Positions 5,518 through 58,400 of a stretch of 64,000 nucleotides of DNA are shown piece by piece (position 1 is the stretch's first letter; every line of letters begins with the position of its first letter). Both the position numbers and the translations under genes were made by a program. The DNA is from a phage. The stretch is taken from sequence record PZ386971.1, one strand, 5' to 3'. The notes under the pieces are model-generated. The model made no database searches. It was not told the DNA's origin and saw only the letters and a list, made by a program, of their open reading frames with translations.

Positions 5518-5945
5518 TATGGTCTCCTCAACCATTCTAAAATCGGTACGTTCACAAACCCTTTATGCCAGCGATGGGGTTTATGGCCTCTGTTGTGTTC
5601 GAGCAAACACGTATCCGGTGGGACACTGAAGTGGATGCCTTCGATGTCGTAGTAATGCCCATCAATCAGAGTATACACATGACCTTCGGTCTGACTGTAA
5701 TGGATCTCTGCTTGGGGATACACGTGCTTCAGAAGTAGAGCAACCTGGTAACACTTCCCGTTCTTCCCCACGTACTCGACATCCACCTGTTGTGGAAACA
5801 CATCTTTGATAAGGTTTATCAATCTCGTGATGTCATTTACGACAACCGAACGTTTCATATCACCTCTCCCGAGGATTCGTTGGTGAACCAATGATACTCT
5901 ATCCCGGATATAGAAAAGCCCCTCACGGGGCTTGATCGTCTTCAT
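5517..5945 (-). CDS. hypothetical protein (His-rich)
   Basis: 142-aa ORF in same-strand array. Confidence 0.5.
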
Positions 5946-6225
5946 CAGGGAATATACGCCATCGACCTATTCCATACCACTCACCGATAGAGTTCCATGT
6001 CCTTTCCCCAGGCCAGCCGCCGACCGAGTAGTAATGCGCCACCAGCCGCCAGTAAGGAAGAGAGGCCGTGTTCACGCCGCCGTCGGCCTTTAGGCAGGCC
6101 AAGTACCAATTCGTGAGACTGAACGCCTGAAATAACGGATGAAGGAACATGAAGTACAGGTAGCCCAATATGGCTGTGAATACCCCAGCTGTTACGATCA
6201 CACCGATGACAGTGAATACAATCAT
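5923..6225 (-). CDS. membrane protein
   Basis: 100 aa with N-terminal hydrophobic helices. Confidence 0.45.
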   Translation of the reverse strand: MIVFTVIGVIVTAGVFTAILGYLYFMFLHPLFQAFSLTNWYLACLKADGGVNTASLPYWRLVAHYYSVGGWPGERTWNSIGEWYGIGRWRIFPDEDDQAP

Positions 6226-6854
6226 CCCACAACCTCCAGACCCATCAGATCTTCCATGGTCTTCTGAATACGCAGCCAGTCAAGCGCAGCGTCATAACGA
6301 GGGTCATGATAGACCATACCTTCCAGTTCCCACGCCTTGATACCAGCATACCGATCCTGCTGTCCAACACCCTTCAGCCAACTCACGATGTCGAAGGTGT
6401 GGTGGTAGTCCCAAGGCTCGTTGGAGTCCTGCTTACATGTCACCTCAATGATGTGCTGAGCCTTGCGCAGATCAAACAGGTTGCGATCACACCAGTCGAC
6501 CGAGCGCGGGTCTACCCCAAGACGATGACAACCCTTGCGGATTTCATCGGCCAATTGGAAGATAGAGATGTCATCTTCCTTGGGGTACAGACTGACTGCG
6601 CGAGCCGCATCACACGGGTTACGTTTACCCGCCCCCAACCACCATTCTACCGTCCCAGCGTCCTTCACGCGACCAAGTTCGAGCTGCTCTTTGACATTCA
6701 GCTTAATGAACGTCGTGCGCTCCTCAACCAGCTGCTGAAGAGTATAACGCTTGGTCAGGTCGGCGATGGTGTGCGCCCAAGACAGCATGACTGCATCATC
6801 CCAGCGCCCCAAGGTTTCACTGTCGGCCACAGCCAAAAAATTTGATTTATACAT
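6222..6854 (-). CDS. DEDDh-type 3'-5' exonuclease (DnaQ-like)
   Basis: Exo I motif LAVADSETLG near N-terminus and Exo III-like HDPRYDAALD near C-terminus. Confidence 0.6.
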   Translation of the reverse strand: MYKSNFLAVADSETLGRWDDAVMLSWAHTIADLTKRYTLQQLVEERTTFIKLNVKEQLELGRVKDAGTVEWWLGAGKRNPCDAARAVSLYPKEDDISIFQLADEIRKGCHRLGVDPRSVDWCDRNLFDLRKAQHIIEVTCKQDSNEPWDYHHTFDIVSWLKGVGQQDRYAGIKAWELEGMVYHDPRYDAALDWLRIQKTMEDLMGLEVVG

Positions 6855-7098
6855 GTTTATTCTCCCAACACTTTATTTTGGCTTTTACTGTATAATAATT
6901 TTCATCAATGAACTTTTTGTTGACGCGCTTAATTTCTATCTCTGGGCAAAGTAACCCTATAGTTTCCCTCAAAATCTGGCTCACCCTGGCCTGTGAAATA
7001 CAATAAATTTCTGATACTTCTTTCGAACTAGTTCCAGACATGACAAGTTTTAGAATATTGACCTTTTTATAAAATTCTTGATCAAACGCACATATCAT
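6847..7098 (-). CDS. small sigma-70 region-4-like HTH protein (putative transcription regulator)
   Basis: 83 aa; SKEVSEIYCISQARVSQILRET resembles sigma region 4 helix-turn-helix. Confidence 0.45.
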   Translation of the reverse strand: MICAFDQEFYKKVNILKLVMSGTSSKEVSEIYCISQARVSQILRETIGLLCPEIEIKRVNKKFIDENYYTVKAKIKCWENKHV

Positions 7099-7101
7099 TA
7101 T

Positions 7102-7716
7102 TCACCCCTCCTCGTCGATGATTTCTTGCTCATCTTCGACAATCATGATACCTTCTGCGTCCAGATGAGAAAGTTCCATCAGATCATTATCGAATCCGTC
7201 TCCTTCCCTGATATAGAAGACTGGGACGACACGACGGCGGGTCTCTTCATACACGCTTTCAGAGATTCGATTGATATGGCGTACTACACTGTAGAGGTTC
7301 AGGCCACCAATACCACAGCCGATAGCAGGCAGGCCGACATAGACAGTTTCGTCTTTAGTTGCTTCCACAATTTCATGCACCTGCTCAAACAGGGTCTGAA
7401 CAGAACTGATGACAGACGGCATGCGAGCGTTCGGGCCTGGATAAAACTGAGTGTAGAGGTTCGCGCCCCAAACGCCCTTGCTGTGGTCAAATGCATAGGA
7501 CATACCACCCAGGCGTTGCTCTGGACCACGAGGGTCGTTCGCATCGACTTCGCGCAGCGCTGGGAAGTTGTTGCCGATGTGCAGAGCAATGCCCGCACCC
7601 ATGGTAGACCAGCAGTTGGCACCGTGGGCAAAGATGTCGATCAGATTGAAGCTACAGGCGGCTTTCAGTAGATCGCCGCCATTGATTACATATGTGGTCA
7701 TGCGTACTGTCTCCAT
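7102..7716 (-). CDS. macro-domain protein (ADP-ribose binding/hydrolase-like) with acidic C-terminal tail
   Basis: HGANCWSTMGAGIALHI and GLPAIGCGIGGLN resemble the two conserved macrodomain loops (NAAN...GGGV and P-x-I-x-T-G-x-x-G). Confidence 0.6.
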   Translation of the reverse strand: METVRMTTYVINGGDLLKAACSFNLIDIFAHGANCWSTMGAGIALHIGNNFPALREVDANDPRGPEQRLGGMSYAFDHSKGVWGANLYTQFYPGPNARMPSVISSVQTLFEQVHEIVEATKDETVYVGLPAIGCGIGGLNLYSVVRHINRISESVYEETRRRVVPVFYIREGDGFDNDLMELSHLDAEGIMIVEDEQEIIDEEG

Positions 7717-7940
7717 TCAATAATGCTGTTGTCAACACATGACACCTGGATGATGCCTGTGCGGTGGTGATAATCAGTCATCTGCATGATAAAGTTGTTC
7801 CCATTGCGGATAATGGTGTTGACAACGATACCCTTGGCAGCAAGGCGTATTACAATGGCAGTGCAAAGACGGTCCATGTAACCGGACACAGAACCTGGTT
7901 CGAAGCATCGCTCGAACAGATTTTCAAATTCTGGGCTCAT
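7698..7940 (-). CDS. hypothetical protein
   Basis: 80-aa ORF in same-strand array. Confidence 0.4.
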   Translation of the reverse strand: MSPEFENLFERCFEPGSVSGYMDRLCTAIVIRLAAKGIVVNTIIRNGNNFIMQMTDYHHRTGIIQVSCVDNSIIEWRQYA

Positions 7941-7990
7941 TTGATGTTACCAAACAAGAGGTCGAGGCGGTAATAATACCGCCTTTTTCT

Positions 7991-44452: not shown

Positions 44453-47400
44453 ATGGCTAATAAACCAACACAGCCTGTTTTCCCTCTCGGTCTGGTGGCT
44501 GAAGAGCAGTCTACTTTGGCTGGTGTCGTCAACAAGGGTACGATTGAGCATGGACCAGATGCTGTCCTGACTTTACCCGAGGGTAATGCCAGCGCAGGAC
44601 TCCCGTCTTCCGTTCGCTACAATGCCGACTCCGACGAATTTGAGGGCTTCTATGAAAATGGTGGATGGTTGCCGCTGGGTGGCGGTGGTATCCGCTGGGA
44701 AGTCCTTCCGCATGCCTCTACGGTAATGCTCACTGAAGGGCGAGGCTATCTCATTAATAATACCACAGGGGCATCTACAGTGGTTCTCCCTTCCCCTACG
44801 CGTATTGGGGATTCCGTTACTATTTGTGATGCTTATGGGAAATTTGCCACTTACCCATTGACCGTGTCTCCTTCTGGAAATAATTTGTATGGCTCCACTG
44901 AAGACATGGCTATAACAACTGATAACGTATCAGCAACGTTCACTTGGTCTGGGCCTGAACAAGGTTGGATTATTACATCCGGCGTCGGTCTTGGCCAAGG
45001 CCGTGTCTACAGTCGTGAAATCTTTACAAAAATTTTGGCGTCTGAAACAAGTACTGTCACTCTCAATACTCCACCAACAATCGTGGACGTGTATGCTGAC
45101 GGAAAACGCCTTGCGGAATCCAAATATTCACTAGATGGGAATGTAATCACTTTCAGTCCTTCTTTGCCAGCCAGCACAGAACTTCAGGTGATTGAATATA
45201 CTCCTATTCAATTGGGTAATGGCGGTGGTTCTAGTTCTTCTACGATTACTTGGGTCTATAATGGGGGTTCAGCGATTGGCGGTGAAACCGAAATCACGTT
45301 GGACGTCGTTGTTGATGATGTTCCGGCCATTGATATAAACGGAAGTCGTCAGTATAAAAATCTGGGATTCACATTCGATCCATTAACCAGTAAAATCACT
45401 CTGGCGCAAGAACTGGAACCAGAAGATGAAGTTGTTGTAATTATCAATGGAACACCAAACATCTATAATCAAATTGATCATACTTTGCGGGAAGTGGCTC
45501 GTGTAACCAATGTTAAAGATACAGAGGTCGTTTATTTTAGTGTTGGTGCTGTGCTAAGCGGGTATAAAGTTATCTATGATAAAGTAACACAGAGATCATA
45601 TTTTATTCCAGAGCTACCGACTGGAACCACGGCAGTCAGCCTTAGTTCTTCGGCTGTACTTGTGCATTCTGCTGGTAGTGTTGATCTGGGCGCATTAGCC
45701 GTATCTCGTGAGGAGTATGTGACCTTACCTGGTTCATTCGATACAGGTGTAACTGTTAATACCAAGAATGAGTTGGTTGTGAGTAACGATATTAAATATC
45801 GTTGGGATGGTTCTGTACCCAAAGTAGTCCCTCCAGAATCTACCCCATTGGGTACAGGAGGTGTTGGTCCAGGGGCATGGCTTGTAGTTGGTGTTGTTGG
45901 ATTAGAGCAACGTTTAGCCTCCTGGAAAGGTTCTTCTCTTATTGATTCCGGTAGTCTGTCTCTTTACAAAAAGAGCGGTGTATTCGGTGATGGTGGGAAT
46001 GTATCCGATAAATATCAGGTTGTTCTACATTCAGATGGGTTCTGGTACAAGTACAATGGGACACTACCTGTTAGTTATGGTGCTGCCCCAGACTCTTCTT
46101 GGACTAACGTTGGTAAGCTAACAGGGTTTAATGAACACTCACCTGAGAATTTTGGTGCAATCCCCAATGACCCTAGTTTTGACTGTTTACCTGCTATAAA
46201 ACTAGCTATAGCCACAGGTACATTAAATCTGAATGGGAATTCTACCTACCACGTAACGGATGAGGTTGTTATACCTTCTTACTTACGTGGGAATCTAAAC
46301 GGGGCAACAATTAAAGCAATTGGCTCCGTATGGCCTACGTTAAAAGCTGTTGTACGCGTTAGTAAATTTCCTGTCGGTACAGCAACAGTGGATGTGGCTA
46401 ATACAGAGAATCAAGTGCGAGGATTACGCTTAATCGGTAGCTTAAACGTAGACTGTGCAGATATTGCATCATATGGTTTTTATGCACGTCTTCTGTGTGC
46501 AGAATCTGAGATGGGTAGCATCTATGCATATAATGCTAATAGATATGGCATTGTAATGTTTGCTTGCTGGTATTTTCAAATGGGCACTCTCCATGCAAAC
46601 AACTGTGCAAGGGGTATGGCATTAGGTTATTCAACAGAAGGTGAGCAAGGGGATACCTATGTGAATGCTACACACTTCCCTCACATTAGTGCATGGGGTA
46701 CTGATAAGTCTACGGGACTAGGTTATGACCCAATCACGGATGATGCGAGTAAATATACAATAGGTGCTGGTATTATCTTAGGTCGTGGTTTGTCTACCAG
46801 TGTTGGTGTGATTTGCTCTGAGAATACGGCAGGTGCTGGGGTAGTAACAATGGACCCTGCTGCGTGGGACATTGGGGTCATGTACTGTGAGGGTAATAGT
46901 AAAGACTTTACTCAAGAGGGTGAACCCAAGGTGTCATTGCTGTCATCCAAGGCCAACAGTGAAAGTCATACGCTTACCATCTCCACACTCCACCTTTCCG
47001 CAGGTTGTGGCATTTTAACCAGAAGCAATCAAGAGCGTGTGCTAATCAGAAGTCTATATCGCTTTGATAACGCAAAAACCTTCCACTCTTACTGCACAGC
47101 AGACACAGTAGAGGTTGGTAGCAGCAACTACTATGTACTTAACGGGCATAATTACAATGCACCTGCTGCACTTATTAAGGAACCGCTCAATGTAGACTTT
47201 GTGCGTTCAGGGTTGACTTTAAGTGAGTGGACATCTACAGTTATCGGTCATTTTGCTGGTAGTACAGCAGAACAACAGCTTTATGTTAAGCTCCCAGCAA
47301 GTCCCAGCGGCCTAGATTTACAGATAGATAGTGAGGATGGGACGGAATATATCACTGTAACTGGTACAGATTTTAAAGTCTCTCTAACTAAGAAAAGATT

Positions 47401-47506
47401 GCCTAGTAAACTGTATGAGATAAGGATTGGTGGGGTGTCTACAGTAGCTGTTACCGATTGTTCTATTCTAGTCAGAAGTAAAAAAGGTGATTGGTATTAC
47501 TGGTAG
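44453..47506 (+). CDS. tailspike protein A (N-terminal anchor region, shared ~130-aa module, beta-helix-like C-terminal part)
   Basis: Start set at MANKPTQ downstream of promoter and leader hairpin; shared module at about aa 375-510. Confidence 0.65.
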   Translation: MANKPTQPVFPLGLVAEEQSTLAGVVNKGTIEHGPDAVLTLPEGNASAGLPSSVRYNADSDEFEGFYENGGWLPLGGGGIRWEVLPHASTVMLTEGRGYLINNTTGASTVVLPSPTRIGDSVTICDAYGKFATYPLTVSPSGNNLYGSTEDMAITTDNVSATFTWSGPEQGWIITSGVGLGQGRVYSREIFTKILASETSTVTLNTPPTIVDVYADGKRLAESKYSLDGNVITFSPSLPASTELQVIEYTPIQLGNGGGSSSSTITWVYNGGSAIGGETEITLDVVVDDVPAIDINGSRQYKNLGFTFDPLTSKITLAQELEPEDEVVVIINGTPNIYNQIDHTLREVARVTNVKDTEVVYFSVGAVLSGYKVIYDKVTQRSYFIPELPTGTTAVSLSSSAVLVHSAGSVDLGALAVSREEYVTLPGSFDTGVTVNTKNELVVSNDIKYRWDGSVPKVVPPESTPLGTGGVGPGAWLVVGVVGLEQRLASWKGSSLIDSGSLSLYKKSGVFGDGGNVSDKYQVVLHSDGFWYKYNGTLPVSYGAAPDSSWTNVGKLTGFNEHSPENFGAIPNDPSFDCLPAIKLAIATGTLNLNGNSTYHVTDEVVIPSYLRGNLNGATIKAIGSVWPTLKAVVRVSKFPVGTATVDVANTENQVRGLRLIGSLNVDCADIASYGFYARLLCAESEMGSIYAYNANRYGIVMFACWYFQMGTLHANNCARGMALGYSTEGEQGDTYVNATHFPHISAWGTDKSTGLGYDPITDDASKYTIGAGIILGRGLSTSVGVICSENTAGAGVVTMDPAAWDIGVMYCEGNSKDFTQEGEPKVSLLSSKANSESHTLTISTLHLSAGCGILTRSNQERVLIRSLYRFDNAKTFHSYCTADTVEVGSSNYYVLNGHNYNAPAALIKEPLNVDFVRSGLTLSEWTSTVIGHFAGSTAEQQLYVKLPASPSGLDLQIDSEDGTEYITVTGTDFKVSLTKKRLPSKLYEIRIGGVSTVAVTDCSILVRSKKGDWYYW

Positions 47507-47513
47507 TATAATA

Positions 47514-47542
47514 AAAAGCCCCCAATTTTGGGGGCTTTTATT
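47514..47542 (+). terminator. intrinsic terminator after tailspike A
   Basis: gccccc-aatttt-gggggc hairpin then TTTTATT. Confidence 0.6.
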
Positions 47543-47570
47543 ATATAGAGTTTACTGTTTTCATTACCCT
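47536..47570. repeat. conserved ~35-bp element downstream of tailspike terminators (copy 1)
   Basis: ttttatatagagtttactgttttcattaccct; near-identical copy at 55206-55240. Confidence 0.5.
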
Positions 47571-47762
47571 GATTGATAATGCTGTTGGCTCTCTCGGGTT
47601 GTCATCAAACGGGTATAAGAACTTTATAGGTGATATCAATGATGGGTCAGCGTATTTTTATTTCGCCAACATAGATGGATCAAGAATATCGGGGTCGTCT
47701 GTTTATGATGGGTGGGGTGATGTTGGTATACATTTTGAAATGTGTCTGGAATAGGAGTGTCA

Positions 47763-47857
47763 AACCCCGCTTTGGCGGGGTTCTTATTATACCTTTGTTC
47801 ATAAATTTGATTAGTTCAGACTAAATACTCCATATTGGTCATCCTTTATGGGGTATT
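47763..47857. repeat. repeated cassette-boundary module (hairpin + late promoter + leader hairpin), copy 1
   Basis: About 95 bp, roughly 85% identical by eye to 50741-50832, immediately upstream of tailspike B. Confidence 0.6.
47821..47829 (+). promoter_or_regulatory. candidate late promoter (CTAAATAct)
   Basis: Within repeated module, 32 nt upstream of ATG 47861. Confidence 0.4.
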
Positions 47858-47860
47858 ATC

Positions 47861-50290
47861 ATGATTTCTCAATTCAATCAACCACGCGGCTCCACTTCCA
47901 TAGAAGTTAACAAACAATCTATCGCTCGAAATTTCGGTGTCAAAGAAGACGAAGTCGTTTATTTCACTGCTGGTATTGATCTCAGTGGATTTAAAGTAAT
48001 TTATAATGAGTCTACCCAACGGGCTTATTCTCTTCCTTCAGGTATTGTTTCAGGAACGACTGCGATAAGTCTGGATAAAAGAGCTATCCTCACTCATTCA
48101 GCGGGTTCTGTTGATCTTGGGGAATTAGCAGTAAGCCGCGAAGAATACGTAACCTTACCTGGTTCATTTGATACTGGTGTAACTGTTAATACTAAGAATG
48201 AATTAGTTGTCTTTACCGATGGTAAGTATCGCTGGGATGGGGCACTGCCTAAAGAAGTGCCTGCTGGTTCAACCCCTACATCAACCGGTGGTGTTGGAAC
48301 AGGTGCATGGGTTAGTGTTGGTGATGCGAGTTTGAGGTCAATAGCTCAATACAGAGCCAATACCATTGAAGATTTAAAATCATTGCCATTTGCGGTTGGA
48401 GATATTGTTAATGTCGCTGGGTATTATGATGTTTTTGATGGGGCACAGCATTACCGAGTGATTAGTGGTACAGATGATGGAACAGGGGTTCAGCTCAATA
48501 ATGGTTTGTGGGCAAATATTATCATTAATGGCGATGCTTGTGTAGATTGGTTTGGCGCTAAAGGTGATGGTGTTGCAGATGACTGGTGGGCAATCAATAA
48601 AGCTATTAACGCCTCGCTCTCTACCGATTATCAGGGTGGTTGGTGGGAGACGTCAAGTAGAAACCCTAAATTTAAAGTTAGACTTAGTAGACGCTCTTAC
48701 AGAATCACTAAACAGATTTTACTACCCCCTTACATAGAGTTTTATGGTATGGGTTCGCGCTGGTATTTTTCGGGTGATAATAATTCTCGCTTAATCCCTG
48801 ATTTTGATAATCCGTTGCAATTCGCTGTGAAATCTGCTAGCTATATTGTTGAAACCGGTGAACTAGCACCTGAGGGGTGGTATTCTGGGGTGGTTTGGGT
48901 TGACCCAAAAAAACTAACGACTTGTCATGGTATTAAAACTTATGGATATAGCATCGAACCAACAAAACAAATTTTAGGCGGTATAAGACTGATAGCGAGT
49001 CCAATTTCTCATGTATACGATATATTCATAACAAATGTTGATTTTGGAGTTTTACTGAATTGTTCATGGGTGAGTAAGGTTGACGTTAAAACTCATCATA
49101 ATAAATGCGGGGTTATGTCTAGTCATGATGGTAATAACACTCACGTGGATGGTTATTTTACAGGGACAGAAATCAAACCGCTTGATGGTAATCCTTACCT
49201 CAACCCAATAGAGTCTTTAGACTCTACAACAGGGCTCCAAGACCAATCTATATCTGACCCAGACAGTAAAATAGGTGTGATTTTTTATTGGTCACAGGGG
49301 TCAACAAGTACGAATATGACGTGTGAGGGTAACACTATTTCGTTGGCTGTGGCTAAGGGTGGTGCTGATGTAAGGTGTTTATACTCAGAACGTAATTCAG
49401 ATTGTACATTTACTGGGTACAGTTCACTAGTTACAATTGGTGAAATAACTGGCATTGGTGACGGTGGAACTTTTGAGCTTGGTGTAAATAATACTATTTC
49501 GTTAGACAAAGACACTCAGTATGGTGTCGCTAAACGATTTAAGTACGTGAGCGAGTGGGGTAATAAGCTGTTTATGCCCTCTAGCTGGAAAGAATACACC
49601 AAAGGTTGTTTAGTTGAAGGGTTTGATTATAGCGAAATTTTTGTAGATGCGATAAATGGAGATGACACCAATGTTGGCTCCAGTCTTCACCCTGTGAAAA
49701 CTTTGGAGAGAGCTCTAACGCTTGTGAATTCAGTGTATACTACATCTGACTTGCTAAGCTCAGTGCCGAGGGATAGAGTAATAAAGTTAGTAGGCTCAGC
49801 AACATACTACCCAGACGGACAGCATAGGTTCGTGGGCGGCTCGTTAAAAATTACAAAAGCTGATAACTCACGACCGACTGTTAATTTATCAAAACCAATC
49901 CGATTTAACGACACATCCCTAGTATTTGAGGAAGTAAATTTAGTGCGACCAACAGATGACCACGGGAATAATGAGAATGGCGCAATTTTCCTTGAGGATG
50001 GGTGTAATGAAGTCAGATTGAAAAACTGCGATCTAAGTCTACAAAAATTCAGCTTCTTATATCCTACTTGGGGCTTTGCTGGAATATGTACCTTGGTGTT
50101 AAACGGGGTTAGTGTTACTGGTGATTCAACAACAAGAATGATACAAACAGCTGATGGATATCATGATTTGCACTTGTTTAATGTAATTAGCTACGAGACA
50201 ACTTACACTGGAGGAATAGAGTCAAGACCAGATAAAGGCTATGATATACCAGCAGATAGACGTGGTCATATATTGGGTGTATCAATATAA
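47861..50290 (+). CDS. tailspike protein B (shared N-terminal module + pectate-lyase-like beta-helix)
   Basis: Shared module at aa 20-150; WFGAKGDGVADDWWAINKAI resembles the beta-helix depolymerase entry motif. Confidence 0.65.
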   Translation: MISQFNQPRGSTSIEVNKQSIARNFGVKEDEVVYFTAGIDLSGFKVIYNESTQRAYSLPSGIVSGTTAISLDKRAILTHSAGSVDLGELAVSREEYVTLPGSFDTGVTVNTKNELVVFTDGKYRWDGALPKEVPAGSTPTSTGGVGTGAWVSVGDASLRSIAQYRANTIEDLKSLPFAVGDIVNVAGYYDVFDGAQHYRVISGTDDGTGVQLNNGLWANIIINGDACVDWFGAKGDGVADDWWAINKAINASLSTDYQGGWWETSSRNPKFKVRLSRRSYRITKQILLPPYIEFYGMGSRWYFSGDNNSRLIPDFDNPLQFAVKSASYIVETGELAPEGWYSGVVWVDPKKLTTCHGIKTYGYSIEPTKQILGGIRLIASPISHVYDIFITNVDFGVLLNCSWVSKVDVKTHHNKCGVMSSHDGNNTHVDGYFTGTEIKPLDGNPYLNPIESLDSTTGLQDQSISDPDSKIGVIFYWSQGSTSTNMTCEGNTISLAVAKGGADVRCLYSERNSDCTFTGYSSLVTIGEITGIGDGGTFELGVNNTISLDKDTQYGVAKRFKYVSEWGNKLFMPSSWKEYTKGCLVEGFDYSEIFVDAINGDDTNVGSSLHPVKTLERALTLVNSVYTTSDLLSSVPRDRVIKLVGSATYYPDGQHRFVGGSLKITKADNSRPTVNLSKPIRFNDTSLVFEEVNLVRPTDDHGNNENGAIFLEDGCNEVRLKNCDLSLQKFSFLYPTWGFAGICTLVLNGVSVTGDSTTRMIQTADGYHDLHLFNVISYETTYTGGIESRPDKGYDIPADRRGHILGVSI

Positions 50291-50740
50291 ATAATTGATA
50301 TTATGCTTCATGGTGATTGTGGGTGATTCACCCACGATTACTTTTAGGTACTACAGTTGATAATTCAGATTGATACATTGGATTGGCAGGTGCGTGTAAT
50401 ACTGCACTTGAATTTTGATACATAAATCCGGCACCCTCCCTCACCCTCAACGCGCCCAATTGCCCCCATAGGAGGCTCATTACCTCCTTGTGGGCTTTGT
50501 TGTTTTTGTGGCTGCTGTTGCTGACTACATTCTATGTATGGATGTATCTCATCATACTAAGCATTATCTAAGAGCCATCCTATGATACGACCCCATTGGG
50601 ATTCCTAACTTCACAACTACGGTAATATTATGAATTAATCAGGTGAACTGCTCCTAGTCAGACTGGAGGAACGATTGAAGACTCTGTTTGATAATCAGGC
50701 AAGGGATAGATAGGATCGTGGTTTTGGAGAGTAAAATCAA

Positions 50741-50832
50741 AACCCCTCTTCGGCGGGTTCTTGTTATACCTTTGTTCATAAATTTATTAGTTCAGACTAA
50801 ATACCCCATATTGGCAAATCCTCTATGGGGTA
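50741..50832. repeat. repeated cassette-boundary module, copy 2
   Basis: Near-duplicate of 47763-47857 immediately upstream of tailspike C. Confidence 0.6.
50797..50805 (+). promoter_or_regulatory. candidate late promoter (CTAAATAcc)
   Basis: Followed by leader hairpin taccccata...tatggggta and ATG 50841. Confidence 0.4.
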
Positions 50833-50840
50833 TCTTCAAA

Positions 50841-53177
50841 ATGACCAGAAACGTCGAGAGCATCTTTGGAGCGGTCGTAACAGCTCCGCACCAGATTCCA
50901 TACACTTACACAGCAACGGGTGGAGAGAAGTTTATCTCCCTCCCTTTCTACCCTGTCACTGGTATAGTCACAATCAACGGTGGCATGCAAGTTCCGTTAG
51001 ACAACTTTGAAATCGATGGAAATACGTTGAATCTCGGACGCGCATTATCCAAAGGTGACGTTGTGTTCTGTCTGTTTGATAAGATTCTGTCTCCAGAAGA
51101 TTATAAAACCGGGGTTCGAATCTATAAGTTTCAGGCTATAGGAGGTGAAACCGAGTTCACTCCTGATTACACATATTATGGAGTCCAATCTCTTTATATC
51201 GGTGGTGAGTACAAAACACCCGAAATTGAATATTCCTATGACAGCACGACAGGGAAAGTGTCTTTACAAACTGCGCTGACTGCAGGCGTTTGGGTAGTCG
51301 CTGAAATGTCTGTTAAACAACCGAATATCAGTCCGTTGTTTGACCGAAGTATTCAAGAAATCGCCCGTTCAACTAATGTAAAAGATTCTGAAGTAATCCT
51401 TAGTACGGATACTTCTCAGGTACTTAATGGTAAGAAAATTATTTACTCTGTTAATGAGCAGAAGTCTTATGGTTTACCGGTATTACCTACTAACGTTTAT
51501 ATTCAGTCTGTTGTTAACGGGAAGCTCACATACAATCCTGGTTCTGTGGTTGTAGATTTACTCTCTGTACCAAGTGAAGCACTTGAAGCAGTTAATTTAA
51601 TTAAAACCAATTTACTTAGTGAATCGGGTGCATCTTTGGTTGGGTATACAAAACCCTATACTGGTGCAGTTAAACGTCTTGCTTCTGATTACTTTAATCA
51701 GGAGATTAACGTTGATGACTTTGGTGCATACGGTGATGCATATCTTCTTAACGGCACTGTAAACCCAAATCGCCATGATGACTCTGCTGCATTCCAGAAG
51801 GCATTGATTGCTGCTTATCGAATTGGTGGTGCTAAGGTTGTAGCTACTCCTTGGAAGAGTTATTACATTGCCAACAAGGTATATGTACTAGCTTCCGAGT
51901 CCGGTTCCGATATTGAAGCACCAGTTTTCCCTAAACGTCGTATCCAGTTAATTGATTTACAGGGTGCTACCATTGTTGGACAGGATGATACATCTAACAC
52001 CAGTAATGTGTTTATGGAGACAGGCTATATTACTAGTACTGGTTCTGTAGCTTCCGTATTTGGTAAAGGTGAGGAAGAGTATTTAACCATTGGTACATGT
52101 GTGCGAAATGCTACGCTGGTAAATTTCTACCAAGGCTTCCGTTTCCGTGACCATGTTTTTGGTTGTGAACTTACCGATATTGTAGGACAAGATGTGCAGC
52201 AGCTTCTTTATACTCGTCGCTGTTTCTACTCGCTGTACCGTAACTTACAATGCAATGGTAGTTTTACTACTGGCTTGCATCGTTATGACATTGGGGATGA
52301 AGTGAATATTCAGCCTCTGATTTCGGTCCATACTGGCGAGTGTGACGTAGGTATTAAGTTCACTGGGGCAGTTGAAGCACTGACTCTCTTTAACTGTGGT
52401 ATTGAAAGTTTCCGCACACATGGAGTATGGATTGCTGGTGCTTACAATATTAAGTTCGATTCTTGTTACTTTGAATCGAATCACCCTAATGTGTACGGTT
52501 GTATCGCTACCAGTGCTAATAACATTACATTGGATAATAACTGGATTTATGGTTCATCTTTTAAGATGTTCGGTGGGTTTGATGACAACACTAATGTCAG
52601 AATGCACCCTAATAACCGTATAGGGGGTGGAGCAGTTTGGTGGGATCTTAATGAAGGCTCCCCTTATAACTTATCTGACTTACACTTCCCTACTGACATA
52701 AAAGCTGGTGGTAATACCTTACCCGTAGTTAGTGCCAAGGAAGCTAGTACTGTAAACCAGACTATTACTTTCTATGACCCTAATTTAGGTTTGTCCTCAA
52801 TAGTTGGTAAAGCAGAGCAAACTAACCGTTTCCACCCACAACGAGTAAATGGTCAGATGAGCATCGGTAGTACTGCATCTTATACAGTTGGTGCATCTAC
52901 AACCACTGAAGTAGTTGGAAATGATACCCGAGTTAAGTGGACTACCCAAATAAGATATTCTGATACACAGTTACTGTATGTAGCACTTAAGGTAGATAAC
53001 AACTTAGGAACCTGGTTCTGGTTAGGCCATGTTGTAGGTGATACAGCTAAAGCCTTACTTACCAGTGATGAAAACAAACCCCCTGTAGTTACTAATGAAA
53101 ATGGTTATGTAACTATAACCAGTCCACTACTTGCTACCCCTATTGCAATTCATGGTGGTGAGATTCGTATACTGTAA
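50841..53177 (+). CDS. tailspike protein C (divergent copy of shared module + beta-helix-like domain)
   Basis: Start set at ATG 50841 downstream of promoter (track ORF began at 50688); DDFGAYGDAY...SAAFQKALIAA motif. Confidence 0.6.
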   Translation: MTRNVESIFGAVVTAPHQIPYTYTATGGEKFISLPFYPVTGIVTINGGMQVPLDNFEIDGNTLNLGRALSKGDVVFCLFDKILSPEDYKTGVRIYKFQAIGGETEFTPDYTYYGVQSLYIGGEYKTPEIEYSYDSTTGKVSLQTALTAGVWVVAEMSVKQPNISPLFDRSIQEIARSTNVKDSEVILSTDTSQVLNGKKIIYSVNEQKSYGLPVLPTNVYIQSVVNGKLTYNPGSVVVDLLSVPSEALEAVNLIKTNLLSESGASLVGYTKPYTGAVKRLASDYFNQEINVDDFGAYGDAYLLNGTVNPNRHDDSAAFQKALIAAYRIGGAKVVATPWKSYYIANKVYVLASESGSDIEAPVFPKRRIQLIDLQGATIVGQDDTSNTSNVFMETGYITSTGSVASVFGKGEEEYLTIGTCVRNATLVNFYQGFRFRDHVFGCELTDIVGQDVQQLLYTRRCFYSLYRNLQCNGSFTTGLHRYDIGDEVNIQPLISVHTGECDVGIKFTGAVEALTLFNCGIESFRTHGVWIAGAYNIKFDSCYFESNHPNVYGCIATSANNITLDNNWIYGSSFKMFGGFDDNTNVRMHPNNRIGGGAVWWDLNEGSPYNLSDLHFPTDIKAGGNTLPVVSAKEASTVNQTITFYDPNLGLSSIVGKAEQTNRFHPQRVNGQMSIGSTASYTVGASTTTEVVGNDTRVKWTTQIRYSDTQLLYVALKVDNNLGTWFWLGHVVGDTAKALLTSDENKPPVVTNENGYVTITSPLLATPIAIHGGEIRIL

Positions 53178-53228
53178 TTACACAGCCCCCTTAACTGGGG
53201 GCTACCATAGAAAAACAATGAGGTTTAT

Positions 53229-55145
53229 ATGAACGAAATGTTCTCACAAGGTGGTAAAGGCTCCACTGGTATTCTTACCAATAAACAAGCCATTGCTCGT
53301 AAGTTTGGTGTTAAGCAGAACGAAGTAGTTTACTTTTCTGTAGGAGTAGACTTGGGTGGATACAAAGTCATTTATGATAAGGCTACTCAACGTGCTTACT
53401 CACTACCTGCAAATATTGCCCCAGGTACTATTGCTACTAGTCTTAGTGCTAATGCTGTACTTGTTCATTCAGCTGGTTCTGTAGATCTTGGGGAATTAGC
53501 CGTATCTCGTGAAGAATACGTTACATTGTCTAGGTCGTTTGACACTGGTGCTACACTTAATGTTAAAAATGAATTGCTTACCCATACAACAGGTAAGTAT
53601 CGCTGGGATGGCGAGTTACCTAAAACCGTTTCTTCTGGCTCAACTCCTGAAAGTGCTGGTGGTACTGGGTTAGGCAAATGGGTTAGTGTTGGTGATGCAG
53701 CCTTGAGAATCAATCTTGCATCTGATGATGGCGCTGGTCTGGTCGGATTTAAGTCACCTCTGGCCAACTCCATTAAGCGAACACTACATGATAAAAATAA
53801 AGACCTGGTGTCAGTCAAGGACTTCGGGGCTGTTGGCGACGGTGTGACCGATGATACCGCCGCGTTTCAGGCAGCAATAGATTCGAAAAAGAGTTTATAC
53901 ATACCGGATGGTATTTATCTTATAAGCTCTACTTTAATCATAACTGCCACTGATAGTCTATGTATTGTTGGTAATAGTTTTGGACATGTTAATGACCAAA
54001 CAACAGGTTCAGTAATTAAGTTTACCGGGTTAGCGTCACCCGCCATTCGGGTTCAAGGTGGTGCGATAGGAGCTAAGATTTCTGGACTTTTTCTGGATAT
54101 CCAGGATTCATCATCTGATGGCTTTGATTTCGGTGGGGCTTGGTATTTAAAACTTCAAGATTGCGTTGTCAGAAACGCTCGATATGGGGTCTATTTACAT
54201 TACGATAGCCCAGACTATTTTTCCGGAGTAGCTGAACTAACTTCATGCTATTTCGCTAAATGTGCAAATGGTGTAAAAACGTCAAAGGTAGATATCAACG
54301 TAGTTAAAGTTGATAATTGTACTTTCTTTGATGGTGTTAACGGTGTTCTTATCGGAGACTCAGGTACTGCAAGTAGTGTACGAAATTTCATAGTCAGAGA
54401 CTCTCTATTTGAAGCAAACACGGGCTATGACGTAGGTGTTGTCGCCGGGGGTGCACAGCAGTTACTGGTAGATGGTAACTACTTTGAAGAGAATACTGCT
54501 TCTTCTTTAGCCAGGGTATATGTTACAGATGATAGTCACTCACCGCGTTCTTCTTCTGTTTCAATAACCAACAACACGTTTAGCAAAGATACGACAGGCG
54601 ATCTTATTTTCCTGTCTGGTATTTCCGGTGTTCTTGTTAAACAAAACTGGTCAGCATTTGGGGGTATAGGTTTTGTAAGGGCTATTAATATCGACAATTA
54701 TGAGATAGATAGATGCTCTACCGTATCTGGAGCAACAGCCTGTAATGTTGTTATAGATAACGTCTTACAAGTACCTGACACTTCTGTTAATAAGATTTAT
54801 ATTAACAAGGCCCAAGAATACGCGTTTATCGGGACTTCCGTCGTAAAAAGGTCGAGTGCATGTACACGGGCAATGATCAATTTTAATGGAATTTCGGGGT
54901 CGTCAGTGTATGCGGATGGAGCAACTGTAACTAAAACCGGGACCGGTAAATATACCGTCAACCTATCTAATACTATGCCCTCCTCTGCTTATGCTGTTTT
55001 ATGCAGTGTTGGCAATACCACTAGCGGAGGGAAATTAGTAATTAATGTCGTAAGTACATCCCCTGACTCTTTTAACTTAGAAGTTTTTGACCTTTCTGGA
55101 TCGTATCAAGATTCAGGATACATATCTGCCGCAGTTGTTATGTAA
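53229..55145 (+). CDS. tailspike protein D (shared N-terminal module + pectate-lyase-like beta-helix)
   Basis: Shared module at aa 20-150; VKDFGAVGDGVTDDTAAFQAAIDS beta-helix entry motif. Confidence 0.65.
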   Translation: MNEMFSQGGKGSTGILTNKQAIARKFGVKQNEVVYFSVGVDLGGYKVIYDKATQRAYSLPANIAPGTIATSLSANAVLVHSAGSVDLGELAVSREEYVTLSRSFDTGATLNVKNELLTHTTGKYRWDGELPKTVSSGSTPESAGGTGLGKWVSVGDAALRINLASDDGAGLVGFKSPLANSIKRTLHDKNKDLVSVKDFGAVGDGVTDDTAAFQAAIDSKKSLYIPDGIYLISSTLIITATDSLCIVGNSFGHVNDQTTGSVIKFTGLASPAIRVQGGAIGAKISGLFLDIQDSSSDGFDFGGAWYLKLQDCVVRNARYGVYLHYDSPDYFSGVAELTSCYFAKCANGVKTSKVDINVVKVDNCTFFDGVNGVLIGDSGTASSVRNFIVRDSLFEANTGYDVGVVAGGAQQLLVDGNYFEENTASSLARVYVTDDSHSPRSSSVSITNNTFSKDTTGDLIFLSGISGVLVKQNWSAFGGIGFVRAINIDNYEIDRCSTVSGATACNVVIDNVLQVPDTSVNKIYINKAQEYAFIGTSVVKRSSACTRAMINFNGISGSSVYADGATVTKTGTGKYTVNLSNTMPSSAYAVLCSVGNTTSGGKLVINVVSTSPDSFNLEVFDLSGSYQDSGYISAAVVM

Positions 55146-55160
55146 GTAATAATCACTTAA

Positions 55161-55195
55161 AAACAACCCCACTTCTATGGGGTTGTTTTTACTTA
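55161..55195 (+). terminator. intrinsic terminator after tailspike D
   Basis: aaacaacccc...ggggttgttt 10-bp stem then TTTTTAC. Confidence 0.6.
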
Positions 55196-55205
55196 TTAAT
55201 AATAC

Positions 55206-55240
55206 TTTTTATATAGAGTTTACTGTTTGCATTACCCTAA
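55206..55240. repeat. conserved ~35-bp element downstream of tailspike terminators (copy 2)
   Basis: tttatatagagtttactgtttgcattaccct, matching 47536-47570. Confidence 0.5.
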
Positions 55241-55404
55241 TCGATACAGCAGTTAAGGTAATAGTCTGACCTGATATATTAAACATACCTAATTGAATAC
55301 CATCTACCATGAATGGCAGAGGTCTCGAATCCATGACCATAACCACAGAAAGATAATCAAAGCCCCTTCGGGCTTATTTCTTTCTATTCCTCGGTTGGTT
55401 GTAT

Positions 55405-55413
55405 ACTAAATAT
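55405..55413 (+). promoter_or_regulatory. candidate late promoter (CTAAATAtc)
   Basis: About 34 nt upstream of ATG 55447. Confidence 0.35.
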
Positions 55414-55446
55414 CTCTATAATGGCACCTATCGATGGAGCATCAAA

Positions 55447-58400
55447 ATGCAAGAAATGAACCTCAACCGCCGCCCATATTGGGATGACTGGAATCCAGAG
55501 AAGCGTTTTTCGCGCATCCTATTCCGTCCGGCACCTATCAAAGTTCAGACGCGTGAACTGAACCAGATGCAGACCATCTTCCAGGATCAACTGGAGAAAC
55601 TTGGCAACCATCTGTTCAAAGACGGTTCAATGGTTATCCCCGGCGGCCTAACGATCACCAACACTGCTGTGTCCATGAAGTTCACTCTGGCTGGTGGTAG
55701 TGAGTTCACTGATCTGGAAGGTATCTCCGAACTCTATGTTCTGGGCAAGGACAACAATGCGAAAGCACGCGTCCTGTCCTTGGAACGTTATCCAGCTGAG
55801 CCGGATACAATGTATGCCATCTTAGAGATGACTGAGAGTGGTAGTTCAGACGGTTTCGAAGCTGGCGACAATCTATATTTCAACACCTATGACGTGAACG
55901 ATAACTTCATCCGTGTCGGCTATGGTGTGGCCGATACTGTTGGTGGTTCGATTGTCGCTCGCATGACAAAGGGTGTTTATTTCGTTCGTGGTATGTTCCT
56001 GGATGTTGAACCAACCACTTTGATCGTAGACAACGCATCGAACTCTACATCTCACCGCATTGGATTCAAAGTTACAGAAACAATCGTGACCGAAGCAGAA
56101 GATGAAAGTCTGTTCTCCAATGCTCAGGGTACTCCGAACTCTAAAGCCCCTGGTGCGCATCGCCTGCGCGTCGACCTCGTGTTGTCTCGCTACGGTTATG
56201 ATGAAGAAGTGGCCGACTTCGTCGAACTAGCGAAGGTGAAAGACGGTCGCATTCAGTCCATGGTCACCCAGTCAACGTACAACATCCTCGAAGACGCCAT
56301 GGCTCAGCGTACCTATGAGACCAACGGGGATTACAACGTCTCTACTCACCAGATCGACCTGCGCGAACATCTGAAAGAGAACAACAACGGCGGCGTTTAC
56401 ACTCCGGCTGAAGGTGGAGATGAAAGCAAATTCGTGGCGGTTATGAAGCCAGGCATTTCCTACGTTCGTGGTCGTCGTATCGAAAACCTCGGCGAAGAGC
56501 TGGTCACAATTGACAAAGCCCGTGACACTGATACCCTGAACAACAACCCTGTGGCTGTTTCGACTGGTAACTATCTGGTGTCCAAGAACTCCAAAGGGGT
56601 TCCGGTTGTCTCCCGCACAATCCGCTACAAGTTCCTGAACGCATCCAGCGATGTACAGGCCACTGCCCTGCTGATTTCGGCAGAGCGCTCCGGTACTGAA
56701 TTCCGTCTGTATATGCGTGACCTGGTTGTGACTGGGGACATGGGCACGGTGACCAAAGTCGCTTATGAAGAAAGTGGTACAACGATGTTCTCTTGCGAAC
56801 TGGAGTCCAATCAGTTCAGCCAGAGTTCAGCAATTGACCTGATCTTCCCTCTGCCTGTATTTGGTGTGAAGACTCTAGCACCTACAGGCACCATCGACAT
56901 CAACTACACTGTCCTACGGTCAAACAAGATCACGTTGAACGCCGCTGGTGCAGGCTCAATCTCCGCTCCTCTGGGTTACAGCTTCAGCCCTGAGTTTTCA
57001 CTGTACTCCGCAGCGAAGGCAGATGGCACTGCAGCTCAGTTTGATATCTCTTCGGGACTGTCCCTGGCTGGTACTCCGGTTGGTTCAGCACTGCAGATTT
57101 CCCTGGGCGCGGGGTACGCCAACCAGTCTATCAACCTGTTGGCATTGATGGTCCGCACCACAGCGACGATCAAGACCAAGACTGTTACCGAAGTCACCGA
57201 GACTGTGACGTTTACTACGGCAGCCAGCGTACAACTTGGGAACCACGACGGATACAAGCTGGTCAGTGTGAAGAACGCAAATGGTGCTGACGTCACCTCG
57301 AACTTCACTCTGGACGGCGGTCAACGCGATGCGGCGTACTACCGTTCTAACCTCGTATCGTCTACTGGAGCCATCTCAGGCGTGTTCACAGTGGTGTACC
57401 AGTACTTCGCTCACAGCTCTGGTGATTTCTTCACAGCGGACTCCTATTCGTCCATCAACTACCCAGACATCCCGAACTATGTTTCATCCAGTTCTGGTAC
57501 TGTGTATGGGTTGGCCGACAGCCTGGACTTCCGTCCCAAGATAACCAACGGAGCGTCTGACACGGACATGGTTCGCCCGAACACCGCGATCATCCTAGAT
57601 GCAGAGTACTATCTGCCTCGTATTGATGCCGTGTATCTGGCAGACAACGGCGTGTTCAACGTTGCTCGCGGTGTGAGTTCCAACAACCTGGCTTCCCCTG
57701 CGATCCCAGACAACGGCATGCGCCTGTATGAATTGATGATCCCACCATACACGGCCAACATCGACGACATCCAGATTCGTACTATCGACAACCGCCGCTA
57801 CACGATGCGCGATATCGGTAAACTGGAGACCCGTATCTCCAATGTCGAATATTACACCTCACTGTCTCAGCTGGAATCCTCGGCGATGTCACAACAGGTG
57901 TTCGATCCAATTACTGGTAACCCGCGCTTCAAGAACGGTATCGCAGCAGACCCGTTCAAAGACTTCCGTCTGATCGACGATTTGTCTGCAGACTGGGTGG
58001 GTTCAATCGACACTGACAATGGTCGCCTACGCCCGTTTGTTCAGCAGAACGCGATTGACCTGACGCCAGTCGGTTGGAACAACGTTCAGGATGGCATGGT
58101 TGTATGCAACTACACCCGTGAGATCTCTGTCCGCCAGGACTATGCAACCACGACCATCAACGTGAACCCGTATGCGGTGTTCAACTGGGAAGGCTTCTTG
58201 AAGCTGAACCCGACTACTGATTACTGGTTTGAGAACTACTATGTCACCCCACGTGTGATCAACGAAACGATCAACACCCGTGGTGCGATCAAAGAAGGTT
58301 CTGTGTATGGCACATGGCGTACTGTGTCTGTGTCTGAGCGTGTGTGGGAACCGCATGGTGCAGGTGGTGTATGGTGGGGCTATCGCTACCGCACGACTGT

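Follow-up and report, generated by a model that had tools for sequence, protein, structure and literature searches.

In the group 3 and group 4 factors of the sigma-70 family (FliA/WhiG, SigB/F/G and the ECF factors; PF04545, TIGR02937), region 4 is built from a 4.1 helix followed by a helix-turn-helix (HTH), and region 4 of sigma70 touches the beta-flap through its helices H1, H2 and H5 (T4 review, PMC2988021). Phage T4 carries out sigma appropriation by means of AsiA and MotA (PMC2988021; PMC6755090). AsiA, a core gene product of its phages, binds and remodels sigma70 region 4 and is itself no homologue of that region. Small phage proteins consisting of a single HTH domain, variously labelled 'sigma-70 region 4' or LuxR-type, are also on record, e.g. 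a 78-aa protein in BFVD (A0A6J5R7F6), a 74-aa protein of Enterococcus phage EfV12-phi1 (A0A3B8DJY0) and a 102-aa protein of Klebsiella phage Eowyn (A0A7R8MJR4). Here we describe an 83-aa phage protein that belongs with these already known small stand-alone HTH proteins of the sigma-region-4/LuxR class. What the analysis adds is that its gene is a mini-cassette that few phages have, that has been exchanged horizontally among them and whose history can be traced.

The gene was found in a stretch of 64,000 nucleotides (record PZ386971.1), referred to as the window throughout, which derives from an Ackermannviridae phage and matches Escherichia phage AV101 at ~97% identity across the 3 kb tested. 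The features of the locus, in window coordinates, are:

7102..7716, minus strand: tk.4 (204 aa), the upstream neighbour, in the same frame as the 83-aa ORF, with only TGA-ATA between the two
7105..7113, minus strand: Shine-Dalgarno-like GAGGAGGGG, in the 3' end of tk.4 and 6 nt upstream of the ATG of the 83-aa ORF
6847..7098, minus strand: ORF of the mini sigma-region-4-like HTH protein (83 aa), ATG-initiated, TAA stop included
6862..6866, minus strand: GGGAG, a replacement ribosome-binding site for dexA, within codons W78-E79 of the 83-aa ORF and 7 nt upstream of the dexA ATG
6222..6854, minus strand: dexA exonuclease (210 aa), the downstream neighbour, whose start overlaps the end of the 83-aa ORF by 8 nt
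6855..7101: inserted cassette (~246 bp, GC ~0.34), missing in most relatives, where the tk.4 stop abuts the dexA start

The 83-aa ORF is a real gene. The first-pass annotation had placed an ORF at 6847-7098 and quoted part of its product; both were confirmed, residues 25-46 reading SKEVSEIYCISQARVSQILRET exactly as quoted, and the ORF begins with ATG behind a strong ribosome-binding site. It is tightly coupled to tk.4 and dexA, as indicated by the placement of the Shine-Dalgarno-like motif, the GGGAG within the ORF and the overlap of its stop with the dexA start (ATGTATAA). The motif GAGGAGGGG, which serves the 83-aa ORF in the window, serves dexA in phages with an empty site, and the cassette itself provides dexA with the replacement. 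All seven copies of the ORF are intact: their 10 variant sites comprise six synonymous changes and four conservative replacements (I2M, T23S, K72N and K74R), with no replacement in the HTH core (residues 25-50) and no frameshift anywhere in the ORF. Under neutrality, synonymous and replacement changes are expected at a ratio of roughly 1:3, and the variant pattern gives a weak indication that the ORF is under purifying selection.

The reading frame shared by tk.4 and the 83-aa ORF (window 7099-7104, TGA-ATA) means that readthrough of the tk.4 stop would fuse both proteins, an arrangement that is probably coincidental. In KE31, two added G residues shift the tk.4 frame such that tk.4 ends 17 nt inside the 83-aa ORF.

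Among the 209 phage records matching the 3-kb region, which formed our comparison set, only four encode the 83-aa protein (AV101, vB_EcoA_4HA11, SilasIsHot and KE31), leaving ~98% of otherwise syntenic relatives without it. The gene is also present in one IMG/VR contig and in a few contigs from metagenomes, always at the tk.4|dexA junction; searches of IMG/VR and the assembly index returned no other genomic context. Protein identity is 97.6-100% among the four GenBank phages, the IMG/VR contig and the metagenome contigs. The AV101 record gives the subfamily as Aglimvirinae, SilasIsHot and KE31 belong to the genus Kuttervirus, and between them the carriers represent two subfamilies, with the cassette in at least four different flank backgrounds.

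The insert can be delimited precisely at ~246 bp because in close relatives without the gene (ZQ1, fGh-Ecl02 and ChubbyThor) the dexA start directly abuts the tk.4 stop, the empty junction of the ZQ1 type reading GAGGAGGCGTAAATG. The 83-aa ORF takes up the entire insert, with no spare DNA. At a GC content of ~0.34 versus 0.48 for the whole window (mean 0.483), the insert is the sole AT-rich island within the first 33 kb of the window. AT-rich islands (GC 0.30-0.38, against the same mean) are packed densely at window 45326-55460. A structured RNA was considered as an explanation for the AT-rich insert and ruled out, the region of the ORF having no Rfam match and folding no better than shuffled sequence (z = 0.27). 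No paralogue of the protein was found elsewhere in the window. Repeats in and around the cassette were limited to short matches compatible with chance, yielding no candidate operator.

Both junctions of the cassette (6855-6861 and 7099-7104) carry GAATAA followed by ATG, within GTGAATAATG on one side and GAGAATAAACATG on the other; from the sequence, this looks like either a duplicated Shine-Dalgarno/spacer/start module or microhomology used at insertion. The early region is an indel hotspot more generally (window ~5860-5990; L003:1856-2775; L004:1859-2775): fGh-Ecl02 and ChubbyThor have two additional genes, for a ~229-aa 'alpha hydrolase' and a 77-aa ORF, both of which are missing from the window, and ChubbyThor has an additional 74-aa ORF near 7940-7965.

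Comparison of carriers with empty-site phages allows the exchanges to be followed. Against SilasIsHot, a ~600-bp patch (window ~7320-6720) is 97-100% identical within a surrounding backbone of 67-78% identity. The 3' end of tk.4 beside the cassette is only 66-71% identical to the window in KE31 and in the IMG/VR contig (L009), against 98-99% for the cassette itself. The KE31 flanks match the empty-site contigs L017 and L019 on both sides (…GTGGAGGGTGAAA|ATGTATAAATCA…), making the L017/L019 lineage the likely home of the cassette, which thus appears, by its flanks, to be native to a Kuttervirus lineage whose empty site resembles these contigs. The window lineage is of the L017/L019 type in the cassette, in <10 nt at the tk.4 stop and in the first ~45 nt of dexA, and ZQ1-like in the rest. 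The dexA tract is as follows:

6810..6854, minus strand: first 45 nt of dexA, a Kuttervirus (L017/L019-type) synonymous allele co-transferred with the cassette

Identity to the ZQ1 backbone allele is 78% in these 45 nt and 99% in the 90 nt that follow. The 11 synonymous differences in this tract resembled a protected cleavage site, i.e. an immunity polymorphism against a homing endonuclease. This candidate was rejected: the empty-site phages L017, L019 and L024 have the same allele, and the differences are accordingly those of a co-transferred lineage allele. We propose that recombination, taking along very short stretches of flank, carried the cassette into other Kuttervirus and into Agtrevirus-like backbones, that of the window included.

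With respect to protein sequence, the first-pass annotation had called the product sigma-region-4-like and named the Sigma70_r4 profile as the one to search. That search fell short of its cutoff: Sigma70_r4 (PF04545) scores 16.6 bits (E = 0.0055) over residues 24-47 only, against a gathering threshold of 24.1. GerE (PF00196; 16.4 bits, E = 0.0069, threshold 23.5 bits), HTH_28 (16.7 bits, E = 0.0077) and HTH_23 (14 bits, E = 0.045) follow nearly tied, so that these direct Pfam matches, all of them sub-threshold, do not discriminate between HTH classes. Matches to PHROGs are weak, with sigma-factor families ranking first. In NCBIfam, the HTH matches are to sigma models only, the best being TIGR02937 (sigma70-ECF, E = 7e-5) and FliA/WhiG coming second. 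In the TIGR02937 alignment, residues 14-48 fall on the region-4 end of the profile (positions 124-159 out of 165); no direct score reaches the curated cutoff.

An exhaustive phmmer search of 1.8 billion representatives returned four distant matches. Three of them are multi-HTH repeat proteins, each hitting many families of HTH, and the fourth is a 64-aa protein (P0004). P0004 is the sole distant relative similar along the whole HTH (59% identity over residues 11-47, E = 3.9e-4 against 1.8e9 proteins), and the motif SEIYCxSQARxSQI is common to both proteins. It scores 41.5 bits for Sigma70_r4, above the Pfam threshold, and sits directly downstream of a 93-aa Sigma70_r2 ORF in two independent bacterial contigs; the nearest relative of the 83-aa protein is thus an ECF-like sigma factor's region 4. 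Through both TIGR02937 and P0004, homology to genuine region-4 sequences of sigma factors, aligned on the region-4 part, is therefore detectable. In the P0004 contigs the region 2 and region 4 ORFs lie 154 nt apart in different frames (L007:5565-6195; L008:3506-4136), a layout identical in two independent assemblies; from its sequence, this split ECF-like factor would be a pseudogene or else a genuine sigma factor made in two pieces.

Beyond these matches the 83-aa protein family is, in the databases searched, almost an orphan. A word-indexed search of 5.8 billion proteins returned its own cluster only, and a profile search with alignment A2 added no homologues beyond that cluster, P0004 and the three repeat proteins. 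Sequence searches of the PDB, with the protein and with a profile, gave nothing significant, and the best non-significant matches, reached through P0004, were WhiG and other group-3 sigma region 4s (the WhiG segment GLTLREIGKALGLTEGRISQILRQSLGKL corresponds to GTSSKEVSEIYCISQARVSQILRETIGLL of the 83-aa protein). In alignment A3 the protein is 23% identical to region 4 of host FliA and 11% to that of sigma70, having only the RVSQ(I/L) core in common with FliA. Mimicry of either host region was rejected on account of this low similarity. The sub-threshold scores and the transitive link thus weakly support the resemblance to sigma region 4 that had been proposed: the sigma-like character stands through TIGR02937 and P0004, while every direct score stays below threshold.

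The predicted structure divides the protein into three parts:

7039..7089, minus strand: long N-terminal helix (residues 4-20), corresponding to region 4.1, in which KKVNILKLVMSG aligns with RKLNIIKLRFIDG of P0004
6949..7026, minus strand: helix-turn-helix (residues 25-50), corresponding to region 4.2, SKEVSEIY / SQARVSQILRETIGLL
6850..6948, minus strand: basic C-terminal extension (residues 51-83, pI 9.1), with predicted helices at 61-66 and 68-82

AlphaFold2, run on the single sequence, predicts helices at residues 4-20, 25-32, 36-50, 61-66 and 68-82; the best model has a pLDDT of 87, and the other four of the five models are of low confidence. The fold is supported independently by a separately computed BFVD model of the SilasIsHot orthologue, which superposes at a TM of 0.97, and structure tools thus do predict the HTH that the first-pass annotation had read from the sequence. 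Its description of the protein as essentially a region 4 applies to the first 50 residues; residues 51-83 form an extra helical extension that makes up 40% of the protein (33 residues) and has no detectable homologue. The net charge of +3.6 and the basic tail are compatible with nucleic-acid binding. On its own, the HTH half is nearly neutral (pI 7.8), and many region-4 domains that bind DNA are more basic, which counts against this.

In a search of the PDB, Foldseek assigns similar probabilities (0.9-0.96) to SigF region 4, sigmaA region 4 and LuxR/NarL DNA-binding domains. SigF region 4 reaches a probability of 0.95 but an E of ~0.9, and LuxR-type domains match equally well, with local rmsd values of 1.1-1.5 Å over 38-45 residues. 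All E-values against the PDB and BFVD exceed 0.1 apart from the self-match, and the phage proteins that neighbour it in BFVD are small and uncharacterised, a number of them bearing the annotation 'sigma-70 region 4'. At the level of predicted models, Foldseek is unable to separate sigma region 4 from LuxR-type HTHs for this protein.

We put the probability at about one in two that the 83-aa protein is an optional, early-expressed, sequence-specific DNA-binding regulator. The ORF would then be an early, functional accessory gene that some Ackermannviridae phages possess on a minimal cassette of ~246 bp, and its product a stand-alone descendant of region 4 of the sigma-70 family (4.1 helix plus 4.2 HTH) to which a novel basic helical tail of 33 residues has been joined. 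The recognition helix, resembling that of region 4.2, would bind DNA sequence-specifically, and the C-terminal helices may provide dimerisation or additional DNA contacts. Such a regulator, whether repressor or activator, would act on a few host or phage promoters in early infection. The gene sits in the early-gene cluster, and no promoter-like or terminator-like site was found within 6847-7113, which argues that it is co-transcribed with tk.4 and dexA, to which it would also be coupled in translation. Region 2 and other sigma domains were found in none of the 83-aa protein, tk.4, dexA and six other nearby ORFs; lacking region 2, the protein cannot be a sigma factor.

The first-pass annotation had suggested that the gene could be part of host transcription takeover, for instance as an appropriator or decoy. 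As a core function, takeover is argued against by the ~98% of syntenic relatives that do without the gene, and also by the protein being no close copy of host sigma70 or FliA region 4 and by its substitutions at the -35-reading positions. In sigma70, these positions are, we presume, R584, E585 and R588, and by that numbering the corresponding residues here are Q36, A37 and S40. A narrower form of the proposal is that a free region-4-like domain docks on the beta-flap tip or on a region-4 partner, e.g. an anti-sigma factor, and competes with host sigma region 4, thereby weakening or retargeting -35-dependent initiation. We regard this as doubtful. The protein does have both the 4.1-like helix and the 4.2 HTH, parts of sigma70 that touch the beta-flap; Foldseek matches it to sigmaA-region-4/beta-flap-tip chimeras and to a SigF-region-4/anti-sigma complex with probabilities of 0.82-0.95; and an early-gene cluster is a fitting place for such a factor. 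However, the relatives without the gene run the same transcription programme, the identity to FliA and sigma70 region 4 is merely that given above, and an unrelated extension stands in for sigma H5. With the equivalents of H1-H4 kept and H5 replaced, beta-flap binding is not to be assumed. Isolated region-4 domains are, moreover, generally weak binders of core polymerase without region 2. Bolder, and to our mind very improbable, is the idea that the free domain acts in trans as a sigma region 4, replacing sigma70's own on the beta-flap tip or capturing a region-4 partner (an anti-sigma factor) and, with its basic tail, conferring a new upstream-element specificity on the holoenzyme of the host.

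The mobility of the cassette raises a different origin, namely from a homing endonuclease whose DNA-targeting module would have been orphaned or domesticated, an ancestral free-standing gene at tk.4|dexA having lost its nuclease domain. In a variant of this explanation, a nuclease encoded elsewhere still depends on the HTH to reach empty junctions, and this would account for the spread of the cassette. Sporadic occurrence at one fixed intergenic site, AT-richness and co-transferred flank tracts in several backgrounds all fit, although the observed combination of sporadic presence at a fixed site and flank co-conversion is not specific to homing. What keeps a domesticated module under consideration is that homing endonucleases also use such an HTH for targeting: in gp128 of Streptomyces phage Sollertia, a LAGLIDADG domain occupies residues 6-87, and the C-terminal HTH at residues 111-149 shows 41% identity, over 39 residues, to residues 7-45 of the 83-aa protein. 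KE31, in addition, has an annotated HNH endonuclease gene (L006:5826-6249) ~2.6 kb downstream of the cassette, absent at the corresponding place in the window. Against these points, the protein matches no nuclease family (Pfam, PHROGs and NCBIfam, E up to 10) and neither a nuclease domain nor the remnant of one is present in the insert, which the ORF fills; the gene, still intact, is apparently under purifying selection; the 'recoded' dexA start represents an allele normal for its lineage; a sigma factor, and no endonuclease, is the closest relative; and a frequency of ~2% argues against efficient drive. Overall, we consider an origin from a homing endonuclease rather unlikely.

It is quite unlikely, too, that the protein is a generic HTH of the LuxR/GerE or transposase type without sigma ancestry, the resemblance reflecting the convergent look of short tetrahelical HTHs. 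The almost equal Pfam E-values of Sigma70_r4, GerE, HTH_28 and HTH_23 would be expected of such a protein, as would the predominance of LuxR/NarL-family domains among the high-probability Foldseek matches and the promiscuity of the three multi-HTH repeat proteins that make up the remaining distant matches. Yet the best relative over the full HTH, P0004, has a region 2 next to it and is unambiguously the region 4 of a sigma factor, NCBIfam offers only sigma models among its HTH matches, and the PDB sequence matches are WhiG and sigma factors.

Finally, a non-functional hitch-hiking ORF, its frame preserved merely through recent insertion, is extremely improbable: copies with at least 97.6% nucleotide identity have had little time for decay and the family is nearly an orphan, but the observed synonymous to conservative ratio of 6:4 departs from the neutral one, the ORF has a strong ribosome-binding site, its exact translational coupling at the same time gives dexA a ribosome-binding site again, the best-model fold is confident and agrees with BFVD, and four recombinant backgrounds retain the cassette.

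Should the 83-aa protein prove to be a simple accessory DNA-binding regulator, it would add one more small HTH to the accessory genes of phages, with little consequence beyond that. The cassette offers a clean example from nature of a minimal insert with a single gene: it comes with signals of its own for translational coupling, and in two subfamilies of Ackermannviridae its history of recombination is legible down to the nucleotide. 'Empty' alleles that are isogenic by nature (e.g. ZQ1 versus AV101) make this stand-alone sigma-region-4 domain unusually easy to test functionally. If the protein does bind RNA polymerase, it would represent a new phage route to disturb -35 recognition, and a region-4 swap in trans, if true, would be delivered by a 246-bp cassette exchanged among phages. 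Our literature search found no paper on the 83-aa gene or on stand-alone region-4 proteins of Ackermannviridae. Membership of a defence system was rejected, PADLOC models matching no family at E up to 10.

Set beside sigma factors of groups 3 and 4, the 83-aa protein has the same order of helices, and the core of its recognition helix, (A/S)RVSQI, matches SRVSQL of FliA and GRISQILRQSLGKL of WhiG. It differs from them in being without regions 2 and 3 and in having the C-terminal H5 swapped for its novel tail, and from sigma70 in the -35 contacts. The activators Orf7 and Orf8 of Tn916 resemble sigma factors and are a possible analogy for the 83-aa protein. The small phage 'sigma-70 region 4' and LuxR-type proteins are of similar size and superpose locally at rmsd ~1-1.5 Å over 42-46 residues; unlike the 83-aa protein, they have different tails, their E-values exceed 0.1, and none is known from a mobile mini-cassette. 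Small size (about 90 aa), a place in the early region and a T4-like gene neighbourhood link the 83-aa protein to the T4 system of AsiA and MotA, to which no sequence similarity was found (Pfam and PHROGs, E up to 10); by analogy with AsiA, the 83-aa protein could plausibly act where sigma region 4 meets the beta-flap, although AsiA is core to its phages and the 83-aa gene is optional. Homing endonucleases of the Sollertia gp128 type share the HTH and are also sporadic, intergenic and AT-rich with co-converted flanks, whereas the cassette is without any nuclease domain and its ORF is complete and conserved. Phage morons show the same presence/absence polymorphism between adjacent conserved genes and the same deviant base composition; in contrast to classical morons, the cassette has no promoter or terminator of its own and is embedded in the operon via translational coupling.
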